This document shows positions 5,118 to 28,763 of a stretch of DNA of 64,000 nucleotides, one piece after another. Each line of letters starts with the position of its first letter. Positions within the stretch are counted from its first letter, which is position 1. The stretch lies in NCBI GenBank assembly GCA_945897725.1, contig CAMDFR010000002.1:70200-134199 (forward strand). Direction: 5' to 3'. This DNA comes from Chitinophaga pinensis. GTDB taxonomy: Bacteria; Bacteroidota; Bacteroidia; Chitinophagales; CAMDFR01. A program made the translations under genes and the position numbers. The notes beneath the pieces are model-generated. The model worked only from the letters and a program-made list of their open reading frames with translations, was not told the origin of the DNA and did not search any database.

Positions 5118-5264
5118 GGGGTGTGCCCCTAGCCTTGCATAGCAATCCTTGGCTATGCGCCATTGTAAGCACCTAAATGGCTAGGGTCCTGCTGTTCACT
5201 TCTATCTTTTTATGGACTCGCAAAGCCTCGTCATAAAAAGGATAACGTTGCCATCAGTCACACG
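5118..5264 (+). ncRNA. Structured element copy 1 (Flavo-1-like RNA/repeat)
   Basis: T-rich lead, GG-GTGTG-CC [stem CTAGCC...GGCTAG] GGTC-CTG...TATC-TTTTTATG...CATAAAAA-G-GATA...TGCCA-T-CAG-T-CACAC. Same architecture as three other copies in the window. The family name is from memory only. Confidence 0.62.
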
Positions 5265-5300
5265 GGCATTTCGACATCAGCATGATTTGAATTCATTTTG

Positions 5301-5367
5301 TGCCGCTCCGCTGGAGCTGGTTTCAATACTTATTATAGATCTAGTAATATTTCGCTCCTCCGGAGCT
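5301..5367. repeat. Two short REP-like palindromes (CGCTCC-N3-GGAGCT)
   Basis: CGCTCCgctGGAGCT at about 5304-5318 and CGCTCCtccGGAGCT at about 5353-5367. Confidence 0.6.
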
Positions 5368-5401
5368 TTGATGCCATACCTAAATCTATACATTGTTTTC
5401 T

Positions 5402-5530
5402 CTCGCAAGCGGACGCTTGTGAGTTCTACTAAAAAAATAACAACATATTCTATCCTATCTCTCGCAACTGTCCGCTTGTTAGCTTTTCTAAACAATTACC
5501 CTTATTCTCTCGCAAGCGTCCGCTTGTGAG
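5402..5530. repeat. Three 22-bp REP-like palindromes (CTCGCAAGCG-NN-CGCTTGTGAG)
   Basis: Direct copies at 5402-5423, 5461-5482 (degenerate) and 5509-5530, separated by AT-rich spacers of 37 and 26 nt. Confidence 0.8.
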
Positions 5531-5780
5531 CTCTTTTCTAATACATCAAAGTAGAAAATCATGCCCCGACTGTCATTGCGAAAGCCAACCGGCTGCTCTT
5601 GGCTTGTGGCAATCTTAAGTCGAAGTGTCGCTCTTCCCATCGCATCATAAATTTCAAATTTAACATCACTAAATTCAAATTTACAAATTCATAAATTCAC
5701 TCATTTTCAAATTGAATATTTGATCCAAAGGTTGTTATAATCCAATGCATTGCCTCTTCGCCTACCACATCGAAATGTTT

Positions 5781-5861
5781 GCGTGACGGACTGGCAGCAG
5801 TACCTTGTACTGCCTAAGGCCGGACAGCGGCTCTTGGCTGTTTTCAGCCGCTGGCACGCCC
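5781..5861 (-). ncRNA. Structured element copy 2 (Flavo-1-like), convergent to copy 1
   Basis: Reverse complement reads GG-GCGTG-CC-AGCGGCT...AGCCGCT-GTC-CGG...GCAGTAC-AA-G-GTACTGC-TGCCA-GT-CCG-T-CACGC. Confidence 0.62.
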
Positions 5862-5878
5862 AATAAAAAGAATAAATT

Positions 5879-6727
5879 TTAATTGCCGACGAACTTGCCT
5901 TCTGGATAGGGATGTGGGCAAATCAATGATTTGAAGGTATAAGAAAGGGTGAAACTAAAAAACATATAATGGTCTTTTTTAGTAGAGCTGCCGCGCTGAT
6001 AACCAGGTTTACCAATCACTTCGCCTTTCTCACCACTTCGGTCCATGAGCTTATAGGCGATGCCTTTATTGCCATCTGGCAAGGAGACGGGACTTACATA
6101 ATCGGTGCTTACATCATCCAAATAATCGGTAAAAGTGACTCTGTTTTGAAAGTCTAGACCTACCGACCAATAACGGTTACAAGCCAATTTAATGCCACCG
6201 CCTATAGGAATGGCTAAATTGTACAACTTATACTTTCTATTGCTGGTATAATTCGGGTCATTCTGCCCTTCCGTGCCAAGGGGTTGCAAGTTGTACCATC
6301 TGTTTTGGTATTTTGCCTGCGGATTAAAAAAGAAGACGCAAAGCCCCGTGGAAACATAAGGAGAAACAATCATCTTACGGCTTCGTGTCAAGAAATCAAG
6401 AAAATTAAATTCCAACATTTCACTTAATTCAAAAATATCGGAACGAAAGGATAGATTTCTGTTTTTTTGAAATTGATTTTTGGACAATTGATCATCGGCA
6501 GAAACCTGACCATAAGCAAATGCATGTTTGAACGAAAAGCGCGTCCCTATATTGTTTCTCATGAAAACACCCGCCGATGGACCAACCTTTTGGAAGCTGG
6601 TATTGGTGTTTAGATCACCGGTATAATTAGCACCGCCCAACATGATTCCAACTTCTATTTTTTGAGAGAATGTAGCGAGGAAGACCAAGTTTCCAAGTAA
6701 AAAGAAAAGGATGATTCTGCTGTTCAA
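5879..6727 (-). CDS. DUF6089 / PorG-like outer-membrane beta-barrel protein
   Basis: Signal peptide, GGANYTGDL, RNLSFRS, LQPLGTEGQ and FTDYLDDVS motifs typical of DUF6089; sits upstream of uppS-bamA. TTG start. Confidence 0.8.
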   Translation of the reverse strand: MNSRIILFFLLGNLVFLATFSQKIEVGIMLGGANYTGDLNTNTSFQKVGPSAGVFMRNNIGTRFSFKHAFAYGQVSADDQLSKNQFQKNRNLSFRSDIFELSEMLEFNFLDFLTRSRKMIVSPYVSTGLCVFFFNPQAKYQNRWYNLQPLGTEGQNDPNYTSNRKYKLYNLAIPIGGGIKLACNRYWSVGLDFQNRVTFTDYLDDVSTDYVSPVSLPDGNKGIAYKLMDRSGEKGEVIGKPGYQRGSSTKKDHYMFFSFTLSYTFKSLICPHPYPEGKFVGN

Positions 6728-6790
6728 TGCGGATAATTTATTTGTTGCCTATATGTAAAACGCATAAATAGAGATTAGATTGTTCTACAT

Positions 6791-6820
6791 AAAAAATCCT
6801 ACTTGAATTCAAGTAGGATT
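6791..6820 (-). terminator. Rho-independent terminator of the 6842-7279 gene
   Basis: Perfect palindrome AATCCTACTTGAATTCAAGTAGGATT followed by a T-tract on the minus strand. Confidence 0.75.
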
Positions 6821-6841
6821 GTATGCTATCTGTAACAAATG

Positions 6842-7279
6842 TTATTTTGATTTTTTTGTATTTTTTGCTGTTGTAGTTGCAGCTACTGGAGTTGTACCAG
6901 ATTTGCAAGTAGTGCCAGATTTGCAACAAGCTTTTTCTGGTCCAGTAGCAGTACCACTTACGTGTGTGCAAGTAGTTGGAGTACCAGAAGAATGCGAACA
7001 AGTTGAGGCAACCGGAGGATTGGTAGCGTTGCTATTTGCAACAGCAGTGTTTGTTGAAGTACCATTACCTGCAGGCATTGTTGTACTCATCACGGTAGAT
7101 GGAGTTTTATCCGCGTTCATTACAGGAGCAGCAATTCTAGCAGCTGGGGTATTCGCTGTTGTCATCGTTGTTGTTGTTCCTGTAGTCGTTGTTGTTGTCG
7201 CTGCTGCTGCTGCTGTTTGAGCATTAGCTGCAAAAAAAGTGATAGCAGTGAAAGTGAATCCTAATAATAATTTTTTCAT
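6842..7279 (-). CDS. Secreted Thr/Ala-rich low-complexity protein with a Cys/His-containing tail
   Basis: Typical signal peptide MKKLLLGFTFTAITFFAANAQ, A-rich leader and its own terminator. Confidence 0.75.
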   Translation of the reverse strand: MKKLLLGFTFTAITFFAANAQTAAAAATTTTTTGTTTTMTTANTPAARIAAPVMNADKTPSTVMSTTMPAGNGTSTNTAVANSNATNPPVASTCSHSSGTPTTCTHVSGTATGPEKACCKSGTTCKSGTTPVAATTTAKNTKKSK

Positions 7280-7325
7280 TGTTTTTATTTTTAATGTAAG
7301 TAAATAATATTGTTTGATTGCTAAA

Positions 7326-7991
7326 TTACAAAAGATTCCCCAATATTGTCTCTCCCCCTCTTACCTTTTGGTTTAATTTAACATTTACTTGGGTTCCTAA
7401 GGGAAGATAGAGATCTACTCTTGAACCAAACTTGATAAAACCGAGTTCATGTCCTTGTTCGGCCATAGCGCCAACTTTGCTATAGCACACAATTTTTTTA
7501 GCAAACTTTCCGGCAATTTGACGGATTAAAATTTCTGCATTTTCGTTGGCAATGACCACCGTATTTCTTTCGTTTTGTGTAGACGATTTTGGATGCCAAG
7601 CAACTAAATATTTACCAGCATGGTATTGCACATATTTGACAATGCCACTGATAGGGTTACGATTAACATGTACATTGGTTGGGGACATAAAAATCGATAG
7701 TTGCAATCGTTTGTCTTTAAAATATTCTGGTTCTTCTACCTCTTCAAGTACCACTACTTTTCCATCTGCTGGTGCGATAATATTGTGTAAACCGTCGGGT
7801 ACCATTCTTGATGGCAATCGAAAGAAAGAGGCTGTAAATAAAAAGATGATTGCCGATAGGCCCAACACTGTAAGATGCGCAATTCTTGAATCGGAGATGG
7901 CTTCTACCAACATGATGATGATAAATAAAGAGACTCCTGTAACAAGAATTATCTTATATCCTTCTCTATGTATGCTTATTCTTTTCTTCAT
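7326..7991 (-). CDS. psd: Phosphatidylserine decarboxylase proenzyme
   Basis: FFRLP, APADGKVV, SIFMSPTNVHVNR and GFIKFGSRVD (self-cleavage site). Start moved to MKKRISIHREG at 7991, just downstream of a TATCTTTG promoter element. Confidence 0.93.
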   Translation of the reverse strand: MKKRISIHREGYKIILVTGVSLFIIIMLVEAISDSRIAHLTVLGLSAIIFLFTASFFRLPSRMVPDGLHNIIAPADGKVVVLEEVEEPEYFKDKRLQLSIFMSPTNVHVNRNPISGIVKYVQYHAGKYLVAWHPKSSTQNERNTVVIANENAEILIRQIAGKFAKKIVCYSKVGAMAEQGHELGFIKFGSRVDLYLPLGTQVNVKLNQKVRGGETILGNLL

Positions 7992-8016
7992 TTCGGTCAC
8001 AAAGATACAAAACTTA

Positions 8017-8862
8017 TCAGAAACGCAAGATGATGTATGTGGCGATGATGGGTAAACTATAGAGAATAGCGTCAAATCGGTCTAAAAAACCACCATGGCC
8101 TGGAATGGCAGAGCCACTATCTTTAATTTGTAGACTTCTCTTGAATAAGCTCTCCACCAAGTCGCCAATAATAGCGCCAGTACTAGATAAAACGGCAATA
8201 ATCAACCAATCTAAAAGAGGGATTTGACCTATGATATAAAAGCCTAAGACGCCACCGATTAAGTTTACCAAATAGCCGCCTACAGTGCCCTCTATCGTTT
8301 TTTTTGGAGAAACTCTAGTAAAGAGCGGATGCTTGCCGAACCAATTACCCATAAAATAGGCGCCCACATCATTGAGCATTACGAGTAGCATGGCACCCAA
8401 TAAAATGCGACCATCATACAAGATACCTGTTTCGGTATTTGATAATTGGATGATATAGTTGCTCATAAAAATCGGAATGCCGATATAAAGTAAACCCATT
8501 ACATTGAGGCCAATATTGTATAAAGGTTTGCTTGATTTAGAAAATAACTCTAAAAAAAGAATTAATAAGAAAGCGAAAGGAGCAATAGACAAATACTTTG
8601 TAGGGAGTATGGTAAGCCTTTCTAGGAAGCCGGCAATAAAAATAGCACAGATGTATATGCTTACTGCTATTCCATGAAAATTTGCTAGGACATCATCGGG
8701 TTCTCTTTCAGCTTTAATGATTTTAAAAAATTCATGAGTACAGAGGAGGATGATTAACAACATGATCAAAGCATATGTCCATGGCGAGAAGTATATGGCG
8801 CTCACAATGATGGCTGCAAAGCTCAATCCAGGTATGATTCTTTTTTTTAGGCTATCCCACAT
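8017..8862 (-). CDS. cdsA: Phosphatidate cytidylyltransferase
   Basis: Multi-TM protein with SPKKTIEG and GDLVESLFKRSLQIKDSGSAIPGHGGFLDRFD. Confidence 0.96.
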   Translation of the reverse strand: MWDSLKKRIIPGLSFAAIIVSAIYFSPWTYALIMLLIILLCTHEFFKIIKAEREPDDVLANFHGIAVSIYICAIFIAGFLERLTILPTKYLSIAPFAFLLILFLELFSKSSKPLYNIGLNVMGLLYIGIPIFMSNYIIQLSNTETGILYDGRILLGAMLLVMLNDVGAYFMGNWFGKHPLFTRVSPKKTIEGTVGGYLVNLIGGVLGFYIIGQIPLLDWLIIAVLSSTGAIIGDLVESLFKRSLQIKDSGSAIPGHGGFLDRFDAILYSLPIIATYIILRF

Positions 8863-8877
8863 TTTTAATCTTTTTAA

Positions 8878-9816
8878 CTATGCCGTTTCAGTATTTTCTT
8901 GATCAGTGACCGAGGCTTCAATATCGAATTTTTTCTTATAGAATAAGTAGAGCAAGAACATCATTGCTATGCCTGCCACTAAAGGAATATAGAAGGGTAA
9001 TTTTTCTTCTGGGTTGAATTTGATTGTACCGTTTTGATAAAAATACAAGCTAATAAAGGAGATGGCGTTATTCATAAAATGTAGAAAAATGGTGAGCCAG
9101 ATATTTTTAGTCATACTATACAAAGCACCTAGCACAAACCCCATAAAACATAAGGCGAAGAAATTAAAAAACTCCATATGCATCATTCCAAAAAGTGTCC
9201 CAGATATAAGTATGGCAGGCCATTCTGTTTTGGACCATGAGGCGATGCTTTTTTGGATGACACCTCTAAAAAGCAATTCTTCTCCAATAGCAGGAAGCAC
9301 AGCAATCATGATAAAGATGATAGAGAAATGAAATACACCTTTGATACCAGTCAATTGCTTTACAAAGGAGTCGTATGCTGTTTGTGTATTCATGGAAGAA
9401 GCTTCTAGCCATTTCAGCCATGAAGGAAAAACGAAGGTCTCTTTGTCAATAATTAAGAATTGTAGGAAGAAACCAGCTAAAAAAACAATGGCAAATCCTA
9501 GTAAATATTTTTTGAGATTGCGCTTGTCCTGACTTAAAAAATAACCAAATAGCGAACCTGTCATCAAATAGGAGAAGCATAATGGGGGAAAGATAAAGGT
9601 AAACAACTGTGAAATCATCTGTGCTGCTACGAGGTTTCTGAGACCGCCACTTTGCATGGAAAGCGCTTCTTTGAGTGGAACTTTGGCGCCATTAAGCACC
9701 ATTATGGCCAACATGGCTATGCCGGTTCCAATGAGGAGTCCTATGATAATTAATGCAATGACTAATAAAAATTGAACAGTAGGAGAAATGTTTTGTAGAA
9801 CACCTTTTTTTTTCAT
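8878..9816 (-). CDS. CPBP (CAAX/Abi) family intramembrane metalloprotease
   Basis: PAIGEELLFRG, FGMMH and HFMNN motifs; multi-TM. Confidence 0.9.
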   Translation of the reverse strand: MKKKGVLQNISPTVQFLLVIALIIIGLLIGTGIAMLAIMVLNGAKVPLKEALSMQSGGLRNLVAAQMISQLFTFIFPPLCFSYLMTGSLFGYFLSQDKRNLKKYLLGFAIVFLAGFFLQFLIIDKETFVFPSWLKWLEASSMNTQTAYDSFVKQLTGIKGVFHFSIIFIMIAVLPAIGEELLFRGVIQKSIASWSKTEWPAILISGTLFGMMHMEFFNFFALCFMGFVLGALYSMTKNIWLTIFLHFMNNAISFISLYFYQNGTIKFNPEEKLPFYIPLVAGIAMMFLLYLFYKKKFDIEASVTDQENTETA

Positions 9817-9819
9817 TTG

Positions 9820-10428
9820 TTATTTTAGTTTACCATATCTAATAAATAATCGGCCGGTGAATCCATTTAAATCATTGCTGTTGAGTCCGTTTAGTCGCAG
9901 GCCAGCATTAATTCTATAGCTGAGTCCAATGCCTGCTGCTAAATTCTTGTGCAGATTAATCAACATGTTTAGAGAGGGTTCTACCACCATAAAATTATAA
10001 CGATAGATGGCGCCCACAGGATATTGATATTTGACCATTGCCCAATTGACACTCGCTTCTGGATTAAAGCTCAGCCGTTTATTTGCGAATACAATATAGC
10101 CTGCTTTGATACCAGCATTTTGGTGCTCGAGTATGATATCGTCCTTAGATGTGTTGGGCACAAATTTGTTGAGTGCTTCTTCACTAGTAAGTTTTTGATA
10201 GAGGATTCCAATATAATATTGCTTAGGAAACAACCAGCAGGCACTAAAGGTGGTGTACATCGCAGCACTTTTCAGGGTCTGAGAAATCTGCATATCGGCC
10301 TGTAAAAAATATCGATGGTTATGTGCTGCAGAGGAGAGCGTATCTGTCTTTGCCACAGCAACATTTTGTCCTATAGAAGGACATATAGCCATCCACAAAA
10401 CGATGACAACAATGCACAGATTCCTCAA
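9820..10428 (-). CDS. Hypothetical exported protein, probable small beta-barrel
   Basis: Signal-like N-terminus, alternating hydrophobic strands, C-terminal FIRYGKLK. TTG start is uncertain. Confidence 0.6.
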   Translation of the reverse strand: MRNLCIVVIVLWMAICPSIGQNVAVAKTDTLSSAAHNHRYFLQADMQISQTLKSAAMYTTFSACWLFPKQYYIGILYQKLTSEEALNKFVPNTSKDDIILEHQNAGIKAGYIVFANKRLSFNPEASVNWAMVKYQYPVGAIYRYNFMVVEPSLNMLINLHKNLAAGIGLSYRINAGLRLNGLNSNDLNGFTGRLFIRYGKLK

Positions 10429-10618
10429 AAATGTCTGAATTAAAAGGTGATACTAACAAATATTTCGCTCCTCAAACCTACGAAATAGAACTTTAGAAAT
10501 CAAATTTAGGTTAGAAGGCCATAGGAAATCCTTTTCTTAAAAAAATATACACTTCGGTATAGAAGTGTTGAGAATAATGTTTATGAAAACTTCAAAAGAA
10601 CAATAACTTAGCGCATCC

Positions 10619-11959
10619 ATGTTTGCAATAATAGATACAGAAACTACCGGAGGTAAGCCTTTAAATGATAGGATTACCGAAATCGCAATTATCATCCATA
10701 ATGGAAAGAGAGTTGTAGAAAGTTATTCGACTTTGATTAATCCTTGTCGTAAAATAGACCCATTTGTGTCTGGTATGACTGGAATTACTGATGAAATGGT
10801 GGCCGATGCTCCATTGTTTGCTGATGTGATACAAAGAGTCATCGATTTAACAGAAGGTAAAATATTTGTTGCACACAATGTACGTTTTGACTATGGTGTC
10901 ATTAGAAATGAGTTTAAGAGATTGGGTAAGACTTTTATCAGAAAACAATTATGCACGGTTAAATTATCCAGAAAAATATTACCAGGACTTCCGTCCTACA
11001 GTTTAGGTCGCTTGTGCGAAAGCTTGGATATTCATATTTTAAATCGACATAGAGCTTTGGGTGATGCAGAAGCAACCTCAATATTATTTGAAAAGTTACT
11101 GCTCAATGATAGGAAAGAGGTGATAAGAAGTGAATTGGCAGAAGGTTTGGTAGATGGTATTCTACCAGCAAATCTTTCTAAAAGCCAAGTGGAAGAATTA
11201 CCCGAAGAACCAGGTGTTTATTATTTTTTAGATCAACAACAAAAGGTGCTTTATATTGGCAAGAGCACTAACATAAGAAAACGCGTGATTAGCCATTTTT
11301 CTAATGATTTGAAGTCACAGAAGAGTGCTTCAATGAAAGAAAAAATATACCATGTAGATTATCGTTTGACGGGAAATGAATTGGTGGCCCTATTGGAGGA
11401 GAGTCATGAAATAAAAAGACAAATGCCACCTTATAATGTTACTCAGAGGATAAAAAAATATAGGCAGGGTATCTTTTTGAGAAGTGATGAACATGGTTTT
11501 CGTTTTTTTAAAATGGAAGCGTTGAAATTGCATGAAGAACCGGTAATGAAGGCCACTACGCCAAGAATTGCACAAAAAATGATTGACGAGTTAAATCTTA
11601 GGCATCATTTGAGGGCTTATGTAAACCTTACTCCAAAGTTATTAAAACAGGGCACTTTAGAGTCATTCCGTGATTCACACAATCAAAAAGTAGAGGAGAT
11701 ATTAAAAGCATTTTATTTTTCACACCCGCACTTTTTTATTGTTACGGAGGCCATTAATCCTGAAGAAAGAACGCTTATTTGGGTAGAAAACAATCAATAC
11801 AAAGGTTTTGGAAACGTTTCGGTGCATGATAATTTTGATGATATTGAATCACTGAAACTCCGCATCAAACCTTATATAGACCATCCAGATATTCGAGGAA
11901 TACTTAAGTCATGGCTGAAAAAAAGCAAAAAAACAGAGTTAATCAAATACCAACTTTAG
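10619..11959 (+). CDS. DEDDh (DnaQ-like) 3'-5' exonuclease fused to a UvrC-like GIY-YIG domain
   Basis: IIDTETTG, VAHNVRFD and HRALGDA, then PEEPGVYYF...LYIGKSTNIRKRV. Confidence 0.9.
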   Translation: MFAIIDTETTGGKPLNDRITEIAIIIHNGKRVVESYSTLINPCRKIDPFVSGMTGITDEMVADAPLFADVIQRVIDLTEGKIFVAHNVRFDYGVIRNEFKRLGKTFIRKQLCTVKLSRKILPGLPSYSLGRLCESLDIHILNRHRALGDAEATSILFEKLLLNDRKEVIRSELAEGLVDGILPANLSKSQVEELPEEPGVYYFLDQQQKVLYIGKSTNIRKRVISHFSNDLKSQKSASMKEKIYHVDYRLTGNELVALLEESHEIKRQMPPYNVTQRIKKYRQGIFLRSDEHGFRFFKMEALKLHEEPVMKATTPRIAQKMIDELNLRHHLRAYVNLTPKLLKQGTLESFRDSHNQKVEEILKAFYFSHPHFFIVTEAINPEERTLIWVENNQYKGFGNVSVHDNFDDIESLKLRIKPYIDHPDIRGILKSWLKKSKKTELIKYQL

Positions 11960-11965
11960 AGGAGC

Positions 11966-12772
11966 TTATGGAAGCATTGCTTTGAAGGCATTGTATGCTG
12001 TTGTGTCTTGAGCAGCACTGATAGTCCCCCCAGCACATGAAGAAGATAAGGCTTGGTTGTCGATGTTTTCAACTCGATTTTCTGGATTCGGATGTGTGCT
12101 AAGGAAAGCCGGTGGCTGAGCTGCACCGCTATCAATAATTTTCTTAAAAAATGCAGAAGCCCCATTTGCTCTATAAACTGTAGGACATAGATAAATAACG
12201 GAGTATTTGTCAGCTTCCTTTTCATTGGTTCTGCTGAATTGCAAATTCACCAAGCTTAATGCAATATCGCTAAGCATACCTTGGTTTTTGCCTAGCGCAA
12301 CCTGTGCTAGTGTTGATATTCCATATTGTTGCGTCATGGCTTCCGTAGAATGTCTTTTGTCTGCATGTCCCATTTCATGTCCCATCACCCCTGCCAAAGC
12401 AGAAGCGTTATCTAGGTATTTTATCAAGCCTGTATAGATGTAAATATAACCACCAGGAGTACAAAAAGCATTTTGAGTATTGTCATCATGAATAATATAC
12501 AATTCCCAAGCAAAATCATCTTTGTGGGTTACTTGGCCACTATTCAAAATGGTTGTTTTCATGCTCTCTAAATAGCTGTAGGCATCAGCATAACTTGTTT
12601 TGTTGAGTATGGGATATTCGTCTGGCTTCGAAGCAATTTCATCTCTCACTTGCAGTCCCAATGTTTTATCGTCTTCAATAGAAAAGATATTTAAACCTTC
12701 GCCTTTATTACATCCTGAAAGAAAAATAAAAGAAAGGAGTATCGCAACAGAGAAAATTTTAGCTGATTTCAT
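11966..12772 (-). CDS. M48 family metallopeptidase lipoprotein
   Basis: Lipobox LSGC; NAFCTPGG, HEMGH, EKEAD and FLSTHP motifs. Confidence 0.92.
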   Translation of the reverse strand: MKSAKIFSVAILLSFIFLSGCNKGEGLNIFSIEDDKTLGLQVRDEIASKPDEYPILNKTSYADAYSYLESMKTTILNSGQVTHKDDFAWELYIIHDDNTQNAFCTPGGYIYIYTGLIKYLDNASALAGVMGHEMGHADKRHSTEAMTQQYGISTLAQVALGKNQGMLSDIALSLVNLQFSRTNEKEADKYSVIYLCPTVYRANGASAFFKKIIDSGAAQPPAFLSTHPNPENRVENIDNQALSSSCAGGTISAAQDTTAYNAFKAMLP

Positions 12773-13259
12773 ATTAATGATATATGTGTTAGAGGAATTG
12801 CAAAGATAAAGCCAAAATGTCTAATAAGAATGATGGCCGTAAAACAAGAATCAAAAGCAGGAGGATGATGTTGAGCAATAAATTATTTGTGGAATAATGG
12901 GGGATGCGTAATGTCGGCAATTTGCATGGAATGATGTCGGGCGTGTACTTGTAGAAACTTAAACATATTCAACAATGTCATCTTCCCCACCAAAGGATGT
13001 TTACACAAATCCTTCTGATCATATTCTTTGTCTATGAGGCGCAGTAAAATTTTGTATTCTTTTCTTAAACGGATCCAATTTTATTTAGCTTGTAAACAAT
13101 TGTTTCTTTTGGCTGAATAAGGTTTGTAGGCGTTTTAAACTACAAGGGTAACGAAAGCGCAATGTTCAAAACGTTTTTTCTGAAGGCTAATTTCAAGGAT
13201 GTTTTGTTCAGCGCTACTTTATCTGAGGCCAGCTTTTTATCAAAATCCAATCCTTTTTT

Positions 13260-19302: not shown

Positions 19303-19324
19303 AGATTGTCAATTAAATTTATCG

Positions 19325-20593: not shown

Positions 20594-20606
20594 TTCTACT
20601 TTAATT

Positions 20607-20626
20607 TAATATTGCAATATTACGAT
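20607..20626. promoter_or_regulatory. Palindromic operator upstream of acr3 (ArsR-type candidate)
   Basis: Perfect 16-bp palindrome TAATATTGCAATATTA at 20607-20622, 13 nt before the acr3 start. Confidence 0.55.
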
Positions 20627-20679
20627 AATAAAATATGGTAGAATATTTACGCTAGGTTTAAATCAAATGCTTCTGAATA

Positions 20680-22071
20680 TTATACAAATTCATTTAAGAT
20701 TTCACTCACAACAAACTCGCCAGTTTCCATCGCACCATGCACGGTGGCAACATGTCCTTTCGTGTGGGTGGCCTCACCTGCAAAGTAGACTTGCTTATTA
20801 ATACTTTGAGCCAATTGTGTTCTTAAATCAATAATTCCTGCCTCTGAAGCAAATGAATATGCACCTTTAATAAATGGATTTTTTAGCCAATCCTCAATGT
20901 GGCTGTCAACAATACTTCCACTAGCTATCCCAGCACCATACATGTTGTCTAAGTCTGCTAACACAATATTCACAGCATTATTACCCTCAGTGCTCAAAGC
21001 GCTTGCCTTGTCTCCCATAACGAAAGCGGTAAGCACATGGTCATTTCCTCTTCCTTTTGATGTATACCAATATTCAGGCACAGGTCCATTACCATAGATA
21101 GAGCCTGCGTTTTCATCCCAAAAGCGAGTGCTGAATTTTAAAATTATTTTCATGCCTGCACCCATTCCAATTTTATCGATGGCTTCTTGTTTAGAAGTTG
21201 GCAAAATGGGTGAAAATGTGATATCATTCGCTTTTAAAATTGTCAAAGGAACGCAAACAATCACCTTGTCGGCCGTAAAAGTATTTCCTGATTGATCCGT
21301 TAATAAAATATCGCTTTGTGAATAGTCGATGTTTTTTATCTGAGTATTATAGGTAACTAATGAAAGCGCCTCAGAAAATTTTTCTTCTAAAATAGAATGA
21401 TAGGAACGATTAGAAACATTGTAATTCGCTGTTCCGCTAGTCCATAAATTATCTTCTGCGCTAACGCCAGGTGCACTTAACAAACTCGCGCTTGTTCCAT
21501 ATTCGTTTCCTGTCAACGCATTGAAATAAGGCAATCCTATTGAACCCACCCCTTGAGAAAGGGCATAGGCTTCGCAGCTGACTTCGCCACCAGAATATCT
21601 TACCACTGTCCCAGCAGCATCATCTGCCTTCACATAGGCATCAATAGACTTTGCACTATCTTCGCTCTCTAATCGGTTGTCAAGCATCACAAAATCTGTC
21701 TCACTTCTACTAGCCGTGAACAAGTTTGCATTAGTGCTACTTACAATATCATACCACTTTGATTTTTTGCCATGTATTTCCTCCGCCCCTAATTCTATGT
21801 TAAAGTCTGCAAATCCTTCAAGTGCCTTAATTCTGCCACCAAAAGTATTGCTTGCTTCCAATATTTGAATCGTTGCATTAGGCGCATATTGACGAAGTAA
21901 ACTTGCTGCATAAATGCCGGCTGCACCAGCCCCGATAATCACTATCTTTCCCTTCCATGAAACACTTGGTAAATCGTCTTTTTGGCAAGATTGCAGAAAG
22001 CTTGGAATAAGCACCATACCCGGAATGGCAATGGCAAGGGTTTTAATAAATTTTTTTCTCTCTACATTCAT
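20680..22071 (-). CDS. Flavin monoamine-oxidase-family FAD oxidoreductase, lipoprotein
   Basis: IIGAGAAG, EAS...GGRI, ELGAEEIHG, GAYS and YFAGEAT...TVHGAMETG; N-terminal LQSC lipobox. Confidence 0.88.
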   Translation of the reverse strand: MNVERKKFIKTLAIAIPGMVLIPSFLQSCQKDDLPSVSWKGKIVIIGAGAAGIYAASLLRQYAPNATIQILEASNTFGGRIKALEGFADFNIELGAEEIHGKKSKWYDIVSSTNANLFTASRSETDFVMLDNRLESEDSAKSIDAYVKADDAAGTVVRYSGGEVSCEAYALSQGVGSIGLPYFNALTGNEYGTSASLLSAPGVSAEDNLWTSGTANYNVSNRSYHSILEEKFSEALSLVTYNTQIKNIDYSQSDILLTDQSGNTFTADKVIVCVPLTILKANDITFSPILPTSKQEAIDKIGMGAGMKIILKFSTRFWDENAGSIYGNGPVPEYWYTSKGRGNDHVLTAFVMGDKASALSTEGNNAVNIVLADLDNMYGAGIASGSIVDSHIEDWLKNPFIKGAYSFASEAGIIDLRTQLAQSINKQVYFAGEATHTKGHVATVHGAMETGEFVVSEILNEFV

Positions 22072-22223
22072 TTTTTTTAGTTTTTGGTTGATAGGTTTTG
22101 CAAAAAAAGATGTCGTTTAAGGTCGAAAACAACTCTTTTGATGTATGTTCTAATTCTGTAAATTTAATACAAATACTAAATATGGCAAACCGAAAATAAT
22201 AGAAGAACATAATCCAAATATAT

Positions 22224-22279
22224 TTAACACAATCTTAACAAAGGGGTAAGTATAAAATAATAACATAGTCATTTGTTTG
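22224..22279 (+). promoter_or_regulatory. Promoter of the T9SS cargo gene: TTAACA direct repeats (putative Pho box)
   Basis: TTAACA at 22224 and 22235 (11-bp period). TTTGTTTG at 22272 lies at the same 48-nt offset as the -7 element in the TBDR promoter. Confidence 0.58.
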
Positions 22280-22317
22280 CACTGTAATTAAACAAACAAA
22301 TAAAAAACAAAAATCCA

Positions 22318-23931
22318 ATGAGAAAACTATTACACTTTTTTGCCTTTGTAGCCTTGACTATACTAAGCGCAAATACTTTTGCCGCAGATGTTCCAGTATC
22401 TGGAAATATCACTTCTAATACTACATGGACTAAAGATAACATCTACTTGTTAACAGGTTTTGTCTATGTAAAGAGTGGTGCTACACTTACGATCGAGGCA
22501 GGTACTTTAATCAAAGGTGACAAACCAAGTAAGGGCACATTGATTATTACAAGAGGTTCAAAAATTTCAGCGGTTGGTACTGAATGTGAGCCTATCGTTT
22601 TTACGTCTAACCAACCAATTGGTGACCGTGCTCCTGGAGATTGGGGTGGAATTATCTTGTTAGGAGACGCACCTATCAATATCAAGGATTCAGCTACTGG
22701 TTTGCCAATTGACGGTATTATTGAAGGTGGTGTTGATAATTCAGCCGGAGATGGTCGTTATGGTGGAACTAATGCAAATAGCAATTCTGGTACGATGCAA
22801 TATGTAAGAATAGAATATCCAGGTATCGCTTTCGTTTTGAATAATGAAATCAATGGATTGACGTTTGGTGGTGTTGGAGCAGGTACAACAATCGACCACA
22901 TCCAAATTTCTTACAGTGGTGACGATAGCTACGAGTGGTTTGGTGGTACTGTAAATTGTAAAAACTTAATAGCATTTAAAGGAACTGATGATGATTTTGA
23001 TACTGACTTCGGATATAGTGGACATTGTCAATTTTTATTAGCAGTTAGAGATACAGCTTACTATGATGCGGCGGGTGCTTCTAATAGTTTTGAATCAGAT
23101 AATAATGCTACTGGATCTTCTGTAACACCACTTACTAGTTCAGTATTTAGTAATGTGACTTCAATCGGACCAAAATCCACAGTTTCATTCCCAGCACCTT
23201 CTTATTTTAAGAGAGGAGCACACATCAGAAAAAACTCTACTCAATCAATCTACAACTCTATTTTTATGGGATGGCCGATTGGTGAATTTATCGACGGTAC
23301 AGCTTCCAAAGCAAACTATACTGCAGGAACTTTAGAATTAAAAAATAATGTTTGGGCAGGATGTGGCAGAGATCACGAAGCAGCTTTTGATTCCGCAAAC
23401 GTTCCTTCAGTTGGTAATAGCAATACTTTTTATGCAGCAGCTACAGGCGCTATGTTAGCAGATCCATTCAATGCAACAACTCCTGACGTAATGCCTTCTA
23501 CAGGTTCTCCAGTGTTAAATGGTGCAACCTTTTTCGCAGCTAATTTAAGTAGCTCATTTTTTGATAATACAGTAACTTTCAGAGGTGCTTTCGGAACAAC
23601 AAACTGGATGACTTGTTGGACAAACTTTGATTCTGACAATACACCATACACTTCAGTAAATGAGATTTCAAATTTGAACAACATCAATTTGTATCCAAAT
23701 CCATTCACAGAGAATTTTAATATCAACATTACTGCTGTCGCTTCAATGAAATTAAATATTTCTTTGGTAGACATTAGCGGTCGTATCATTAAAGAAGTGA
23801 TGAATGACAATGTAACGGCTGGTGCACATACATATACTGTAAATACAGAGAACATTCAAAGTGGTATTTACTTTGTAAAAATACAAAGCAATAATCAAGC
23901 AACAACTTTGAAAATGGTTTGTAACAAATAG
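22318..23931 (+). CDS. T9SS type-A CTD secreted protein of unknown function (Gly/Asp-rich, probable beta-helix)
   Basis: Signal peptide; GDWGGIILLG, YVRIEYPG, EINGLTFGGVG, DDSYEWFGG and DDDFDTDFG motifs; C-terminal YPNP...DISGR...SGIYFVKI...K CTD. Confidence 0.88.
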   Translation: MRKLLHFFAFVALTILSANTFAADVPVSGNITSNTTWTKDNIYLLTGFVYVKSGATLTIEAGTLIKGDKPSKGTLIITRGSKISAVGTECEPIVFTSNQPIGDRAPGDWGGIILLGDAPINIKDSATGLPIDGIIEGGVDNSAGDGRYGGTNANSNSGTMQYVRIEYPGIAFVLNNEINGLTFGGVGAGTTIDHIQISYSGDDSYEWFGGTVNCKNLIAFKGTDDDFDTDFGYSGHCQFLLAVRDTAYYDAAGASNSFESDNNATGSSVTPLTSSVFSNVTSIGPKSTVSFPAPSYFKRGAHIRKNSTQSIYNSIFMGWPIGEFIDGTASKANYTAGTLELKNNVWAGCGRDHEAAFDSANVPSVGNSNTFYAAATGAMLADPFNATTPDVMPSTGSPVLNGATFFAANLSSSFFDNTVTFRGAFGTTNWMTCWTNFDSDNTPYTSVNEISNLNNINLYPNPFTENFNINITAVASMKLNISLVDISGRIIKEVMNDNVTAGAHTYTVNTENIQSGIYFVKIQSNNQATTLKMVCNK

Positions 23932-23976
23932 TATTGGATTTAGTGTTTTTTCATCGAAATAGGTATTGATTTAAGG

Positions 23977-24006
23977 AAGGCGGCTGATTTCAGTCGCCTT
24001 TTCTTT
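23977..24006 (+). terminator. Rho-independent terminator
   Basis: AAGGCGGCTGA-T-TTCAGTCGCCTT followed by TTCTTT. Confidence 0.75.
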
Positions 24007-24011
24007 ATTTA

Positions 24012-24059
24012 TTAATATGCTGTCAGCATTCAATTAACATGCTTTTTGTAATCTTAACC
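24012..24059 (+). promoter_or_regulatory. Degenerate TTAACA repeats upstream of the PlcP-like gene
   Basis: TTAATA (24012), TCAGCA (24023) and TTAACA (24034) at an 11-bp period, plus TTAACC at 24054. Confidence 0.45.
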
Positions 24060-24081
24060 CATCAATAATATTCTTGTAACT

Positions 24082-24897
24082 ATGTCAAAAAGATATGTCG
24101 AAATCGCAGTTGTTTCTGATGTTCATCTTGGCACCTTTGGTTGTCATGCAAAAGAATTAAACGCTTACCTAAAATCAATTAATCCAAGCACTCTAGTACT
24201 CAATGGCGATATCATTGACATGTGGCAACTGAACAAAAATTACTTCCCTACAGAACATACCAAAGTCTTACGCCGTATCCTAAAAATGATGCAAAATGGC
24301 ACACAGGTCTATTATATTACAGGTAACCACGACGAATATCTTAGAAAGTTTAGTCATATTCAGTTGGGTAATTTTAAATTGGTCAATCAACTAACATTAC
24401 AGCTCAATCACGAAACATTTTGGTTTTTTCATGGTGACGTATTTGATGTTACGATGCAACATTCTAAATGGTTGGCAAAACTTGGTGGCAAAGGTTACGA
24501 CTATCTTATTATACTTAATAGAGCCATCAATTTTGTATTAGAAAAAACAGGAAGAGAAAAAATGTCCTTATCAAAAAGAGTCAAAGACGGCGTAAAAAAA
24601 GCCGCAAAATTTATCAGCGACTTCGAGCACAACACAGCGGTGTTCGCGCACGAAAAAGGTGTTAAATATGTTGTTTGTGGACACATCCATGAACCTTGTA
24701 TTAAAGACATCAACATTGAAGGCGAAACCATTCATTATTTAAATTCTGGAGATTGGGTAGAAAATTTAAGTGCACTTGAATATAATTTAGGCGAATGGAA
24801 TCTAATTCATTACAAAGACCTAGCCATCACTTTTTCAGAAGATGATTTAGATATAACAGATTTCAATATTCAATCTATTATCAATAAAGCAATGTAG
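24082..24897 (+). CDS. Calcineurin-like metallophosphoesterase, PlcP/LpxH-like
   Basis: SDVHLG, NGDIID, GNHD, HGDVFD, CGHIH and YLNSGDWVE; KWLAKLG...YD...LN segment; paired with a glycosyltransferase. Confidence 0.85.
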   Translation: MSKRYVEIAVVSDVHLGTFGCHAKELNAYLKSINPSTLVLNGDIIDMWQLNKNYFPTEHTKVLRRILKMMQNGTQVYYITGNHDEYLRKFSHIQLGNFKLVNQLTLQLNHETFWFFHGDVFDVTMQHSKWLAKLGGKGYDYLIILNRAINFVLEKTGREKMSLSKRVKDGVKKAAKFISDFEHNTAVFAHEKGVKYVVCGHIHEPCIKDINIEGETIHYLNSGDWVENLSALEYNLGEWNLIHYKDLAITFSEDDLDITDFNIQSIINKAM

Positions 24898-24956
24898 TTG
24901 TATGAACGTTTAAGGCAAGGAAAAGCAACGGTCTTGATATTATTAAACTTCATAGA

Positions 24957-25967
24957 ATGAAAATATTGTATGGCATACAAGCCACGGGGAACGGACATAT
25001 TACACGCTCTATTGAGATCATAGAACAACTAGCTTTGGAGCCAGAAATTGAGAGAATCGATGTTGTCATTAGTGGCAATAATGCTGATATACAATTGCCT
25101 CGAGATATTAATTATAATTGCAAAGGCATCAGCTTTAAATATGGTAAAGAAGGAAAGATATCATATCTCAAAAGTTTTGCAAAGCTCGATCTCTACGCCT
25201 TTGTAAAATCCATCAAAAGTATCCCATTCAAAAAGTACGACTTAGTCATTTCAGATTATGAACCCATTTCTTGTTGGGGCGCTAAAATATATAACATACC
25301 TTGTATTGGTATTGGAAATATATATGCGCTTACCTCAAAAAATTTTCCTCGTTTACATGGCTTAAAACTAAAAACAAATATCGTTACTAAAATACTTTGT
25401 CCTGTAAAAGCGAAGATTGGCATGCATTTCACCAAAATGGATGATTTTATATATTATCCAGTGGTAAGAAAAGAAATTCGAAACGCAACAATCACAAACG
25501 AAAATTTTATCCTCATCTATTTGCTTACATACTCAGATGATGAATTGATGAATATATTGAGAGATAATCGATTTGAAGACTATAAGTTTATTATCTATTC
25601 AAAAACAGAAAAAAGGCCGAACACTATTAAAAACATAAGCATCTTTCCGCTAAACATGGAAAGCTTCACCATGCACCTAACGCAATGTGCTGGCATTATT
25701 ACAGCAGGAGGATTTCAAACCATTTCGGAAGCGCTTTATTTGCATAAAAAATTGCTGGTCATTCCGATGAAAGGTCAGCCCGAACAAAAAGCCAACGCAA
25801 GTATTCTGGAAAAAATGAATGTGCCAATCGCCAAAAATCCTGATGCAGCATCATTGTTGAAATGGTTGCAGGACGACACGAACAACAATCATATAGAAAT
25901 GAAAAATGATATTGATAAAATTATCCATAGAATTATGGATATTGGACATGCTCTGGTAGAAAATTAA
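24957..25967 (+). CDS. GT-B glycosyltransferase (MJ1255/VC2487-like)
   Basis: MKILYGIQATGNGHITRS, ISDYEP and AGGFQTISEALYLHKKLLVIPMKGQPEQKANA. Confidence 0.88.
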   Translation: MKILYGIQATGNGHITRSIEIIEQLALEPEIERIDVVISGNNADIQLPRDINYNCKGISFKYGKEGKISYLKSFAKLDLYAFVKSIKSIPFKKYDLVISDYEPISCWGAKIYNIPCIGIGNIYALTSKNFPRLHGLKLKTNIVTKILCPVKAKIGMHFTKMDDFIYYPVVRKEIRNATITNENFILIYLLTYSDDELMNILRDNRFEDYKFIIYSKTEKRPNTIKNISIFPLNMESFTMHLTQCAGIITAGGFQTISEALYLHKKLLVIPMKGQPEQKANASILEKMNVPIAKNPDAASLLKWLQDDTNNNHIEMKNDIDKIIHRIMDIGHALVEN

Positions 25968-25988
25968 AAAGCAATATTTGCTAATTAT

Positions 25989-27923
25989 TTAGCCGATCTG
26001 CTCCAATACATCTTCCCAGTCTTTCATCAATTGGGCTTGTTCTTGCTTTACCGCGTCATACTTTTTGTAGAAAGAAGGGTCGTTTCCTACCTCTTTAAAA
26101 GATTCGGGATCTTTCAATTTTTTCTCAAATTCCTCTATCTTATTATCCAATTCAGAAATCTGATTCTCTAGCTTAGAAGCTTTGTTCTTTAATGCTTTTG
26201 CTTCCTTGTCGTCAGGTTTATGAGGTGCCGAACTTTGTTTTTTTGCTTCTGCTCTAGAATTCAATTTTGCTAAGGGAATATTGCCGTTTTTAGCCCGTTC
26301 ATATTCTCTAAAATCTTCCGCTTTCTTTTCTTCCAAGAAATCATAAATGTCGCCAACATGCTCCTTAATTCCTGTGTCGGTAAACTCCATAATACGATTC
26401 GTCAAGCCTTGTAAAAAATCTCTATCGTGACTTACCAATATCAATGTTCCTTTATATTCTTTCAATGCTAGCTTCAAAGTCTCTTTCGACACCATGTCCA
26501 GGTGATTCGTAGGCTCATCCAATATCAATAAATTCATGGGTTCTAACAAAAGTTTGGCCATCGCCACCCTTCCTTTCTCCCCGCCACTCAATACTTTTAC
26601 CTTCTTTTCTACATCTTCACCACTAAATAAAAAGCAACCCAATAAGGTTCTTACTTTGGTTCTCATCTCTCCTGTTGCAGCCTCATCAATGGTTTCAAAC
26701 ACTGTCTTGTTGCCATCCAATGTCTCTGCCTGATGCTGTGCGTAATAACCCAAGTGCACATTGTAACCTCTTTTTATTTCACCATCAAAATCCAAATCGC
26801 CGGCAATCATCCGACTCAAGGTCGTTTTACCTGTTCCGTTTTTGCCTACAAAAGCAATCCTGTCACCTTTATCTACATAAAAACTCTCATTGTGAATAAT
26901 GGTTTTATTGCCGTATTTTTTTACAGCGTGTTTCACTTCTAAAACCACTTTGCCCGAAGGCACGGCATCTGGAAAACGCAAATTCATTTTCGACACATCT
27001 TCTTCGTCAACCTCAATGATGTCTAGCTTATCCAACTTCTTTACCAAAGATTGCGCAAAGGCCGCTTTTGATGCTTTGGCCCTAAAGCGCTCAATATTTC
27101 TTTCTATCTGACGTATCTCTCTTTCTTGATTTTTCTTCGCATTAATCTGATTCGCTTTGCGCTCTTTTCTTAGGTCGATATATTTGGAATAGTTCGCTTT
27201 ATAATCATCAATGTCGCCATTAAAAATTTCAATGGTTCTATTGGTCACATTATTCAAAAAGGCTTTATCATGCGATATCAAAAGGATGGCGCCATCATAA
27301 TCTCTAAGAAAATTCTCTAACCAAGTGATCGAATGAATATCCAAGTGATTTGTGGGCTCATCAAACAAAATTAAATCTGGTTTCTGCAATAATATTTTGG
27401 CCAACTCAATTCTCATCTGCCAACCACCACTCAATTCACTCACGGGCGTCTGCATATCCTTGGGCTCAAAACCAAGCCCTTTCAATATTTTCTCTATCTC
27501 TTCATCAATATTGTGAGAACCCATCATGTGAAATAAGGCATCTTTTTCACCATACACAGTAATCAAATCCATATAGGAATCACTATCATAGTCAGTACGC
27601 GTTTCCATTTGATGCGACAAGCTTTTTAGCTCAGTTTCCAAAGCAAGAAACTTGCTAAAAGCGGTCTTAGTTTCTTCGTAAACGGTCTTGGTACTCTGAC
27701 TATTGATATCTTGAGGTAGATAGCCTATTTCAAAATCTTTGGGCGTCGATATATCGCCGTTGTCTGGCTTTTGAAAGCCCGTCAATACTTTTAATAATGT
27801 CGATTTGCCTGCTCCGTTCCTACCTACGAGCCCGATTCTGTCTGTCCGAACGATTTGGAAGGTGATGCCATCGAATAAAGTTCTACCTCCGAAATGTAAT
27901 GATAAATTTGATACTGTTAACAC
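25989..27923 (-). CDS. ABC-F family ribosome-associated ATPase
   Basis: Two ABC domains (GRNGAGKST/LSGGW/DEPTNHLD and GKNGTGKTT/LSGGE/DEPTNHLD), no TM segments, C-terminal coiled coil. Confidence 0.94.
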   Translation of the reverse strand: MLTVSNLSLHFGGRTLFDGITFQIVRTDRIGLVGRNGAGKSTLLKVLTGFQKPDNGDISTPKDFEIGYLPQDINSQSTKTVYEETKTAFSKFLALETELKSLSHQMETRTDYDSDSYMDLITVYGEKDALFHMMGSHNIDEEIEKILKGLGFEPKDMQTPVSELSGGWQMRIELAKILLQKPDLILFDEPTNHLDIHSITWLENFLRDYDGAILLISHDKAFLNNVTNRTIEIFNGDIDDYKANYSKYIDLRKERKANQINAKKNQEREIRQIERNIERFRAKASKAAFAQSLVKKLDKLDIIEVDEEDVSKMNLRFPDAVPSGKVVLEVKHAVKKYGNKTIIHNESFYVDKGDRIAFVGKNGTGKTTLSRMIAGDLDFDGEIKRGYNVHLGYYAQHQAETLDGNKTVFETIDEAATGEMRTKVRTLLGCFLFSGEDVEKKVKVLSGGEKGRVAMAKLLLEPMNLLILDEPTNHLDMVSKETLKLALKEYKGTLILVSHDRDFLQGLTNRIMEFTDTGIKEHVGDIYDFLEEKKAEDFREYERAKNGNIPLAKLNSRAEAKKQSSAPHKPDDKEAKALKNKASKLENQISELDNKIEEFEKKLKDPESFKEVGNDPSFYKKYDAVKQEQAQLMKDWEDVLEQIG

Positions 27924-28027
27924 GCTGCAAGATTATCGAATTTTTAGCTGATTTTCTCAGTTTTTCTCAAAATAAGTTGTGAGTCTGTAAAAGTTTTTAC
28001 ATTTTTGCAATACAAATAATTCTTGTT

Positions 28028-28261
28028 ATGTCTAAAGTTATCGGTATCATTTTCACCCTCATCGGGACGATAGTAAGTGTTTACACTTATTTTTTAATCT
28101 TAAATTCAAGCGCATATTTGCCTTATAATCCAACCGATCCAACGGCACATGCTTCTAGCTATGGCTTGACATTGCCACTGATTGTTGGCTTATCATTATG
28201 CACCATTGGCATCACTTTCTTGTTGGTAGCCAAAGAGGACAATAGTGAAATGCGTCCATAG
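28028..28261 (+). CDS. Small two-TM membrane protein, hypothetical
   Basis: ATG start, two hydrophobic helices, followed by a terminator hairpin. Confidence 0.6.
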   Translation: MSKVIGIIFTLIGTIVSVYTYFLILNSSAYLPYNPTDPTAHASSYGLTLPLIVGLSLCTIGITFLLVAKEDNSEMRP

Positions 28262-28288
28262 TCAACCGTTTTTTAAAATATATTTATC

Positions 28289-28316
28289 AAGCCTATCCTT
28301 ATCGATAGGCTTTTTT
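28289..28316 (+). terminator. Rho-independent terminator
   Basis: AAGCCTATC-cttatc-GATAGGCTT followed by a T-tract. Confidence 0.7.
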
Positions 28317-28328
28317 ATTTGTTTTTTT

Positions 28329-28422
28329 GGGCGCGCCCTTTGCCCCAAAAATCCAAGGGCAAAGGTCCTGTGTTCTGTCGTACGTCCTTTGCAAGGGCGG
28401 TACTCCTGCCACCCAGTCGCGC
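28329..28422 (+). ncRNA. Structured element copy 3 (Flavo-1-like)
   Basis: T7-GG-GCGCG-CC-CTTTGCCC...GGGCAAAG-GTC-CTG...GTAC-GTCCTT-tgc-AAGGGC-G-GTAC...TGCCA-CC-CAG-T-CGCGC. Confidence 0.62.
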
Positions 28423-28523
28423 AGCATTTCGTTCAATTGAATGTTCTCGAATGTATGGTCAGCCTGCTGGTCCGCATTTGCATTGCTGATCCCCTCCTAG
28501 AAAGTATTTGCAATGCTTCTTTA

Positions 28524-28620
28524 GCGCGAGGGAATGCAGCAAGTACCCCCGATTTTTCATCGGGGTACTGCGAAATGCCCGACCAAGGCTTTCTGTATTT
28601 TTAAAGCCTGGGACGCGCCC
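28524..28620 (-). ncRNA. Structured element copy 4 (Flavo-1-like), convergent to copy 3
   Basis: Reverse complement reads T6-GG-GCGCG-TCC-CAGGCTTT...AAAGCCTTG-GTC-GGG...GCAGTAC-CCCGAT...ATCGGG-G-GTAC...TGCATT-CCC-T-CGCGC. Confidence 0.62.
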
Positions 28621-28749: not shown

Positions 28750-28763
28750 GTTTCTAAATTGAA

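Follow-up and report, generated by a model that had tools for sequence, protein, structure and literature searches.

Correia/NEMIS repeats in Neisseria and BOX and RUP repeats in pneumococci are dispersed intergenic repeats of ~100-150 nt that fold in transcripts and affect neighbour genes, and integron attC sites are folded single-stranded DNA (ssDNA) recombination sites that stand in direct orientation in cassette arrays beside the IntI gene. For REP repeats, roles in mRNA stabilisation, termination and supercoiling have been hypothesised (PMC3733652). Flavo-1 (RF01705; PMC2864571) has been listed since 2010 among the commonest bacterial 'small RNAs' with its function unassigned; the supplement of PMC2864571 counts 139 matches in RefSeq 25, and the passages retrieved by a full-text search for the name assign it no function. 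Here we describe four elements of the Flavo-1 family, each a three-way junction, in a 64,000-nt stretch of DNA (the window) from Chitinophaga pinensis (GenBank assembly GCA_945897725.1, contig CAMDFR010000002.1, positions 70,200-134,199 of the forward strand). We propose, with about even confidence, that they are REP-like boundary elements which act in cis and are tied to the gene on their tail side, the acting molecule being the folded strand rich in purines, most likely as RNA from read-through.

The window's own genome (G000) is a lake-water assembly of 2.59 Mb in 50 contigs that is 84.7% complete. It was compared with its closest relative (G002; ~89% identity in the window region, 87% complete), within a genus set of five genomes (G000, G001, G002, G003 and G004) and within an order-wide set of 61 genomes.

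Flavo-1 elements in the window and in the genome

Scanning the window at the Rfam gathering thresholds gave one tRNA and one Flavo-1 match (5181-5271, minus strand; 46.4 bits, gathering score 42 bits). The latter falls on copy 1 (5119-5263, minus strand), a canonical Flavo-1 element whose arm is set in a 5-bp closing helix together with a long second hairpin, forming a three-way junction with a terminal CC. A 5' box (CGAAATG plus 3 nt; 5264-5273, minus strand) lies just upstream of its closing helix, and its A-rich tail (5105-5118, minus strand; a T-run on the plus strand) faces the start of uppS (4245-4994, minus strand). Copies 2-4, which gave no Flavo-1 match at E≤10 in permissive scans of 4500-6500 and 27800-29200, belong to a short-armed, lineage-specific subfamily missed by the Rfam model. 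The tail of copy 2 (5781-5861, plus strand; short-armed, 'type C') lies 17 nt from the stop codon of a DUF6089 gene (5879-6727, minus strand). That of copy 3 (28329-28422, minus strand) faces a DUF4064 gene (28028-28261, plus strand), with a canonical terminator hairpin between the two, and that of copy 4 (28524-28620, plus strand) lies 144 nt upstream of rimP (28764-29261, plus strand).

An earlier note on this DNA had reported four diverged copies of one structured element, and all four are at the places it gave. The covarying closing helices (GTGTG/CACAC, GCGTG/CACGC and, twice, GCGCG/CGCGC) and 3-bp helices (CTG/CAG, CGG/CCG, CTG/CAG and GGG/CCC) that it described are present, as are the GTC linker (which reads GAC on the folded strand), a hairpin that varies between copies, the T-run with GG, and the CATTTCG that follows three copies. 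Its strand labels have to be reversed, because for every copy folding is better on the strand opposite to the label, the one represented by the Rfam model. The likeness to Flavo-1 that it proposed is right: copy 1 exceeds the gathering score in the model scan that it suggested, and copies 2-4 have the same architecture, although the scan leaves them unmatched.

On the Rfam strand, an optional 5' box precedes the first strand of the 5-bp closing helix and an A. The arm comes next: a 3-bp helix, a mismatch (A-G or G-A) and a 2-bp helix lead to a purine-rich internal loop and the distal helix, and the return strand runs back to GAC or GGT. A variable hairpin and then one or two G separate this linker from the second strand of the closing helix, after which come CC and the A-rich tail. 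All four window copies carry GAC between the arm and the variable hairpin. Tabulation of 118 copies showed A at 54-76% of positions +3 to +9 in the tail and a weakly conserved 5' flank, with a weak A-A-A at -7 to -5 and C/T at -2 and -1; the 5' box occurs in part of the family only. A tRNA-like CCA end was considered and rejected: the C-C-A directly follows an invariant G-C pair, so that the spacing of a discriminator base plus CCA is lacking.

All four copies share with Flavo-1 the 3-bp helix, the A-G mismatch, the 2-bp helix, the purine-rich 3x3-type loop and the distal helix, and the elements are likewise multi-copy and intergenic. The arm architecture of the Rfam model, with its single mismatch, 3-nt internal loops and a 2-bp GC helix beyond them, is found in the Rfam alignment of copy 1 and in the alignment of short-armed copies described below. 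They differ from the described motif in three respects. The Rfam model covers the arm only, whereas here the arm is enclosed by a closing helix and accompanied by a second hairpin, CC and an A-rich tail; the long U/A-rich distal stem is present in copy 1, whereas copies 2-4 have a GUAC-type helix instead, with or without a tip hairpin; and the family behaves as a repeat rather than as a single small RNA (sRNA) gene.

Further copies, for which the earlier note had proposed a genome scan, are numerous. In G000, where 150 of 583 candidates were scored, the Flavo-1 model gave at least 58 matches at E≤10 and at least 42 above the cut-off. Searching with copies 2-4 by nhmmer yielded 83 merged loci, mostly distinct from the Flavo-1 model matches. 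A strict structural pattern (a 5-bp Watson-Crick closing helix beginning with G, then A, a 3-bp helix and its complement, G-R-Y after that complement, the closing complement plus CC, ≤180 nt in all) matched 130 times, compared with 5 times in the reversed sequence, which is far more than chance would give; 111 of the 130 matches passed an arm-motif filter, and 2 were dropped as coding-like. The union of the three lists comprises at least 160 loci, 121 of which parse as full three-way junctions; 27 of the 39 unparsed loci belong to a short Flavo-1 form ('type A') that lacks the second hairpin. The elements behave as a dispersed family of REP type and not as the gene for one small RNA. Like REP and BIME-type repeats, which E. 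coli and Pseudomonas carry together with REP-associated tyrosine transposases (RAYTs), they are high-copy extragenic folded repeats, often in inverted pairs, that stand at gene ends and are kept by the host. REPs are simple hairpins of 20-40 nt with a conserved foot, however, whereas the elements described here are three-way junctions of 68-170 nt.

The family is unevenly distributed. At E≤1e-5, Flavo-1 matches number 46 in G000, 28 in G002, 0 in G001, 1 in G003, 5 in G004 and 58 in G005, a genome of another family, and 24 of the 61 genomes of the order have any match. Our own model of the short-armed subfamily (R1; at most 68 candidates scored per genome), the kind of model that the earlier note had suggested running on relatives, gave 63 matches in G000, 50 in G002, 1 in G009 and 0 in 58 other relatives. 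The outer closing helix, CC and A-rich tail are also found in copies from other families of the order, one copy in G023 is a full three-way junction, and two 5' untranslated region sequences of Flavobacterium psychrophilum (PMC9723704, supplement file 8) share the design. For experimental work it is of use that the Rfam model represents one arm only and that lineage-specific subfamilies escape it.

Pairing, strand asymmetry and selection on the stems

The three-way junction is the minimum-energy RNA fold of copies 1, 3 and 4 and is close to the minimum for copy 2, and the RNA folding z-scores of the four copies are between -1.8 and -3.5. In each, the Rfam strand is more stable than the opposite strand (copy 1, -48.8 and -41.1 kcal/mol; copy 2, -35.7 and -33.9; copy 3, -35.6 and -32.4; copy 4, -39.4 and -38.5). 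As RNA, the Rfam strand is the stabler one in 103 of the 121 parsed copies and the opposite strand in 17, with mean energies of -35.3 and -31.7 kcal/mol, respectively (Wilcoxon p ~1e-15). G-U pairs are equally frequent in the minimum-energy folds of both strands (214/3842 and 203/3639 pairs), and to judge from the sequences the asymmetry is probably due to the internal loops, which are rich in purines and contain G-A mismatches on the Rfam strand but consist of pyrimidines on the opposite one.

Base pairing is kept throughout the family. In the 121 parsed copies, 601/605 pairs of the closing helix, 359/363 of the 3-bp helix and 235/242 of the 2-bp helix are Watson-Crick. When 43 short-armed copies, copies 2-4 among them, were aligned with MAFFT, 98.3% of cells paired compared with 71.2% in shuffled alignments, a value reached by 0 of 500 shuffles; since rows had been chosen for Watson-Crick pairing in the closing and 3-bp helices, with the 2-bp helix screened against non-wobble mismatches only and the distal helix left unscreened, the 2-bp and distal helices alone provide an unbiased test. 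In this alignment, 12 of 14 pairs vary on both sides and none shows a one-sided (wobble) change, and pairing is complete (100% of cells) in the 3-bp and the 2-bp helix, all five pairs of which vary on both sides. Correia/NEMIS, BOX and RUP repeats differ from the elements in this respect, in that here the sequence varies while the fold is kept.

Orthologous loci were compared with G002, which keeps all four window copies at the corresponding sites; the interiors of the two window pairs differ by insertions and deletions or are unalignable. Copy 2 shows only 2 changes, and copy 4 has an additional tip hairpin that is absent in G002. In the other three species of the genus, no element is found upstream of rimP and a different neighbour gene is present there. 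At the genome scale, 20 of 21 fetched G002 Flavo-1 elements lie at sites that also carry one in G000, the remaining locus being unmatched in G000, so that no recent movement is seen. Forty short-armed loci were fetched from G002, of which 9 were not parsed and 7 had no G000 match spanning both element and flank; 24 of the 31 parsing loci were thus placed at orthologous G000 sites. Across these 24 pairs, changes affected 69/1350 stem positions (5.1%), 106/814 loop positions (13.0%), 429/1746 positions of the 5' flank (24.6%) and 404/2278 of the 3' flank (17.7%). Double changes that keep Watson-Crick pairing numbered 13 when the fold was taken from G000 and 11 when it was taken from G002, and those that break a pair 5 and 4. 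By our own arithmetic, 1-2 double hits are expected among ~650 pairs at 5%, so the compensatory class is clearly enriched. Single changes produced G-U in 8 and 10 cases, A-C in 2 and 8, and other mismatches in 18 and 13, for the G000 and G002 folds respectively (sums 18, 10 and 31). The low rate of stem change together with compensatory changes at orthologous sites indicates that selection has acted at each locus after insertion, which bears out the earlier suggestion of selection on the structure and makes single loci with purifying and compensatory stem selection a handle for experiments. In the reading we favour, the spread of the family would predate the split of the G000 species from its closest relative.

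These data bear on the possibility that the element is selfish and function-less, a miniature mobile element whose fold is needed only for its own copying and whose copies decay in place. The patchy, lineage-specific copy numbers, the subfamilies private to two species, the near-identical copies at separate loci (for example on C26 and C5) and the presence of the elements in non-coding DNA alongside other repeats are all in keeping with it. We nevertheless regard it as decidedly improbable, because the stems change far less than loops and flanks and the double changes keep pairing, because orientation and distance relative to genes follow strict rules (see below), and because the loci examined revealed no insertion that distinguishes G000 from G002. 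In G001, G003 and G004, the flanking genes were not neighbours at any of 4 loci tried, and an element-free gene pair was likewise split, so that synteny is too low for an empty-site comparison. A relation to miniature inverted-repeat transposable elements was rejected separately: the flanks show no repeat of each other, and no terminal inverted repeats, target duplications or G000/G002 insertion polymorphism were seen.

Placement and orientation at gene borders

With crude open reading frame (ORF) calls (ATG to stop, ≥90 aa, covering 88% of G000), 99 of 111 copies are intergenic; of the others, 9 fall within ORFs that are mostly tiny and 3 are at contig ends. Neighbouring copies obey an orientation rule. 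Within 1.5 kb, 19 of 20 neighbour pairs, including both window pairs, are head-to-head with 5' ends facing and tails pointing outward, none is tail-to-tail, and the single tandem pair lies within a local duplication. The members of a pair differ in helices and subfamily, as in copies 3 and 4 or the pair at C8:12287/12418, and are not mutually complementary; the pairs are therefore not REPINs. In solo copies, the tail side is the one closer to a gene in 55/86 (p=0.013), and the gene on the 5' side reads toward the element in 57/86. Where the tail-side gene reads toward the element (57 cases), the tail is 2-30 nt from the stop codon in 30/57, and a separate strong hairpin with a T-run stands between stop and tail in 6/57 only. 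Where it reads away, the median gap to the start is ~104 nt for solo and 132 nt for paired copies. Such an orientation rule at gene borders offers a further handle for experiments.

Because Rfam files Flavo-1 as Gene; sRNA, the loci could be genes for a family of trans-acting small RNAs. This would accord with the better folding of the sense strand and with sense signal from several F. psychrophilum copies. On strand-specific arrays of that species, ~9 of features 0001-0014 are above background in standard cultures and ~5 at background (PMC9723704, supplement file 4), and 6 of the 14 fall in a single expression cluster, with higher signal on diluted agar, late in growth, and in blood or plasma (PMC9723704); the main-text passages of PMC9723704 leave this cluster unmentioned. 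Among the structured 5' regions that the same source lists, 6 are labelled Flavo-1 and 4 are given as Flavo-1 in opposite orientation. Against small RNA genes stand the more than 160 copies, which differ in loops and hairpins and have no single-stranded conserved seed, the head-to-head pairs only 20-65 nt apart, the tails that abut stop codons, and the confinement of the subfamily to two species; moreover, array signals of repeats can cross-hybridise. No promoter-like motif was found at a fixed distance in the 5' flank of 118 copies. We thus hold trans-acting small RNAs to be improbable, and Flavo-1 matches should not be counted as sRNA genes in annotation. A ribozyme-like RNA, which the earlier note had also named, found no supporting sign in the analysis. 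A metatranscriptome contig (run X15) covers 5786-6309, that is, copy 2 and the DUF6089 gene, and no contig covers 5053-5754; only contigs were available, and they were not taken as evidence on expression. A promoter inside the second hairpin was also considered. Bacteroidetes promoter motifs have a characteristic -33/-7 spacing, and the recurring T-rich loop of hairpin 2 does not fit it as judged by eye.

In our preferred reading, the element would act in cis, like REP and BIME-type repeats: a fold of high stability would stand at the border of a transcription unit and shield or insulate the transcript or promoter of the tail-side gene from events in the fast-changing DNA on the 5' side. The acting molecule would more likely be RNA, made by read-through from a neighbouring gene.

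Several results weigh against this cis-acting RNA. All four configurations of flanking-gene direction are common (30, 28, 21 and 20), so that orientation is mixed with respect to transcription. Some head-to-head interiors measure only 20-65 nt, and the two members of such a pair cannot both be sense-transcribed from within. The orientation rule itself may not be general, since G005 has tandem and tail-to-tail neighbours at 0.4-2 kb. In F. psychrophilum, Flavo-1 matches lie sense or antisense to transcribed regions and many are untranscribed (PMC9723704), and the array signals may be due to cross-hybridisation between copies. The element is not a canonical intrinsic terminator, as neither strand has a U-run after the fold: CC and an A-run close the sense strand, and on the other strand the T-run comes before the fold, with a weak stretch of 3 T 5-7 nt after the stem. 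The pairing itself is also of an unexpected kind. Over the closing, 3-bp and 2-bp helices, G-U occurs 4 times and A-C 8 times, and the stems of the second hairpin contain 615 Watson-Crick, 8 G-U and 6 A-C pairs. A near-absence of G-U, which is not commoner than A-C in these three helices, is unusual for RNA and fits a constraint at the level of DNA or of both strands, and the classes of single change between G000 and G002 give no clear RNA signature.

The nearly pure Watson-Crick stems without G-U excess and the lack of an orientation bias toward transcription would be accommodated if the element acts as DNA. The purine-rich strand would then fold as ssDNA, for example on the lagging-strand template, and be recognised by an HUH-type or other recombinase, with the 5' edge as the joint of exchange. 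We consider this the main rival, possible though rather unlikely; the breaks in homology at the 5' edge of the elements also favour it.

The 5' edge and the accessory DNA

In 6 of the 24 orthologous pairs, the element and its 3' flank remain similar in G002 but homology breaks off 0-12 nt from the 5' edge; the converse, a break at the 3' edge, is seen in 1 of 24. Differences between the two genomes on the 5' side or between head-to-head copies include a 7.4 kb block of genes (C7:18820-26209) and a 1.4 kb stretch absent in G002 (C7:103672-105107), which carries a HigA-like antitoxin gene and an unassigned ORF of 217 aa and abuts the 5' edge of a Flavo-1 element. A RAYT-like unit of 1.1 kb stands between a head-to-head pair at C9:7079-8196 and is missing at the same site in G002, and at a pair on C11 a length of 45 nt stands against 516 nt. 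At one orthologous gene end, a long-armed copy in G000 corresponds to a short-armed copy in G002, each followed by different downstream DNA. On a 4.1-kb contig (region C49:2368-3776), only 170 nt separate the 5' end of an element from the start of a 381-aa frame with a tyrosine integrase match, and on this side homology with G002 ends after 70 nt. The 5' edge could accordingly be a recombination joint or, more sparingly, the border between constrained sequence and a fast-evolving spacer.

For the alternative that the element acts as DNA, the sharp 5' breaks, the exchange of subfamily at one gene end, the genes lying between head-to-head copies (among them a Y1 gene, and the RAYT-like gene with its REPs), the integrase gene and the patchy copy numbers within the genus (46, 28, 0, 1 and 5) all speak in its favour. 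Against it, no cognate enzyme was found. Both RAYT-type genes have other, simple hairpins around them, which excludes the elements as their cognate REPs. The first (C8:84408-84953) matches NF047646 at 95.4 bits (cut-off 80). The simple hairpin around it is the one that recurs inside window pair 1, and gene and hairpin together constitute a genuine REP/RAYT system, separate from the Flavo-1-type elements. The second (C9:7279-7833; 184 aa) falls just short of the cut-off with 78.2 bits and has numerous copies of a different simple hairpin on either side. The hairpins at C8 and C9 resemble the Bacteroidetes subclass 2.6 REPs in 30 rows of supplement 2 of PMC6006769. Two IS200-like Y1 genes, each in single copy, encode 153 and 160 aa, are 65% alike in DNA and have a Y..NQ..HH motif; one is within C14:29000-32000, and one sits between a head-to-head element pair. 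Such genes fit the non-IS subclass 1.2, described as lacking IS ends (PMC6006769), so a link to them was rejected, and no elements were present near the 6 best Y1 loci of other genomes. The subclasses of these Y1 genes are reported from Bacteroidetes (PMC6006769), which, like the many Flavo-1 matches in the order, is an indirect hint at a host in Bacteroidota. Nor was a reverse transcriptase found, as G000 and G002 (85% and 87% complete) gave no RVT_1 match, and a retro-element with an encoded A-tail was rejected on this ground. The 20 of 21 shared sites give no sign of recent movement, and the sharp 5' break is equally explained by a border between constrained and neutral DNA.

Integron attC sites resemble the elements in being sequence-variable, structure-conserved imperfect palindromes with extrahelical bases, and homology between arrays likewise breaks at the edge of the site. 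An attC array was rejected: 19 of 20 neighbour pairs are inverted, arrays are not formed, and G000 has only 3 tyrosine recombinase matches, two of which, at ~305 aa, were taken to be Xer-sized.

A more speculative proposal, which we consider unlikely, is that the elements are directional boundary modules tied to the tail-side gene that block transcription from the 5' side or mark a joint for DNA exchange, with the interior of a head-to-head pair serving as a safe harbour. If this were true, REP/RAYT units, toxin-antitoxin genes, integrase-bearing DNA and whole gene blocks could come and go between the two copies without disturbing the flanks.

The interior of pair 1 in the window (5274-5780) is a mosaic of other repeats, in which two stretches of ~70 and 82 nt have no counterpart in G002. 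It contains three copies of a short simple REP hairpin (5400-5424, 5459-5483 and 5507-5531) and a dispersed repeat of two hairpins (5296-5368), copies of which adjoin Flavo-1-type elements on C1, C3 and C18; C1 carries one further copy of this repeat. A segment at 5555-5630 is nearly unchanged in G002 despite its changed surroundings and has a hairpin with a loop similar to the one in the second hairpin of the elements; this segment may be what is left of a further copy. The interior of pair 2 (28423-28523) is unalignable with G002, where it is about twice as long. Beyond copy 4, the leader of rimP forms a strong hairpin (28719-28749) that is kept in all 5 genomes of the genus, and a conserved structured 5' element upstream of rimP in Flavobacteriaceae is listed in PMC9723704. 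The tRNA gene found in the Rfam scan (47715-47787, 67.1 bits) is unrelated to the repeats.

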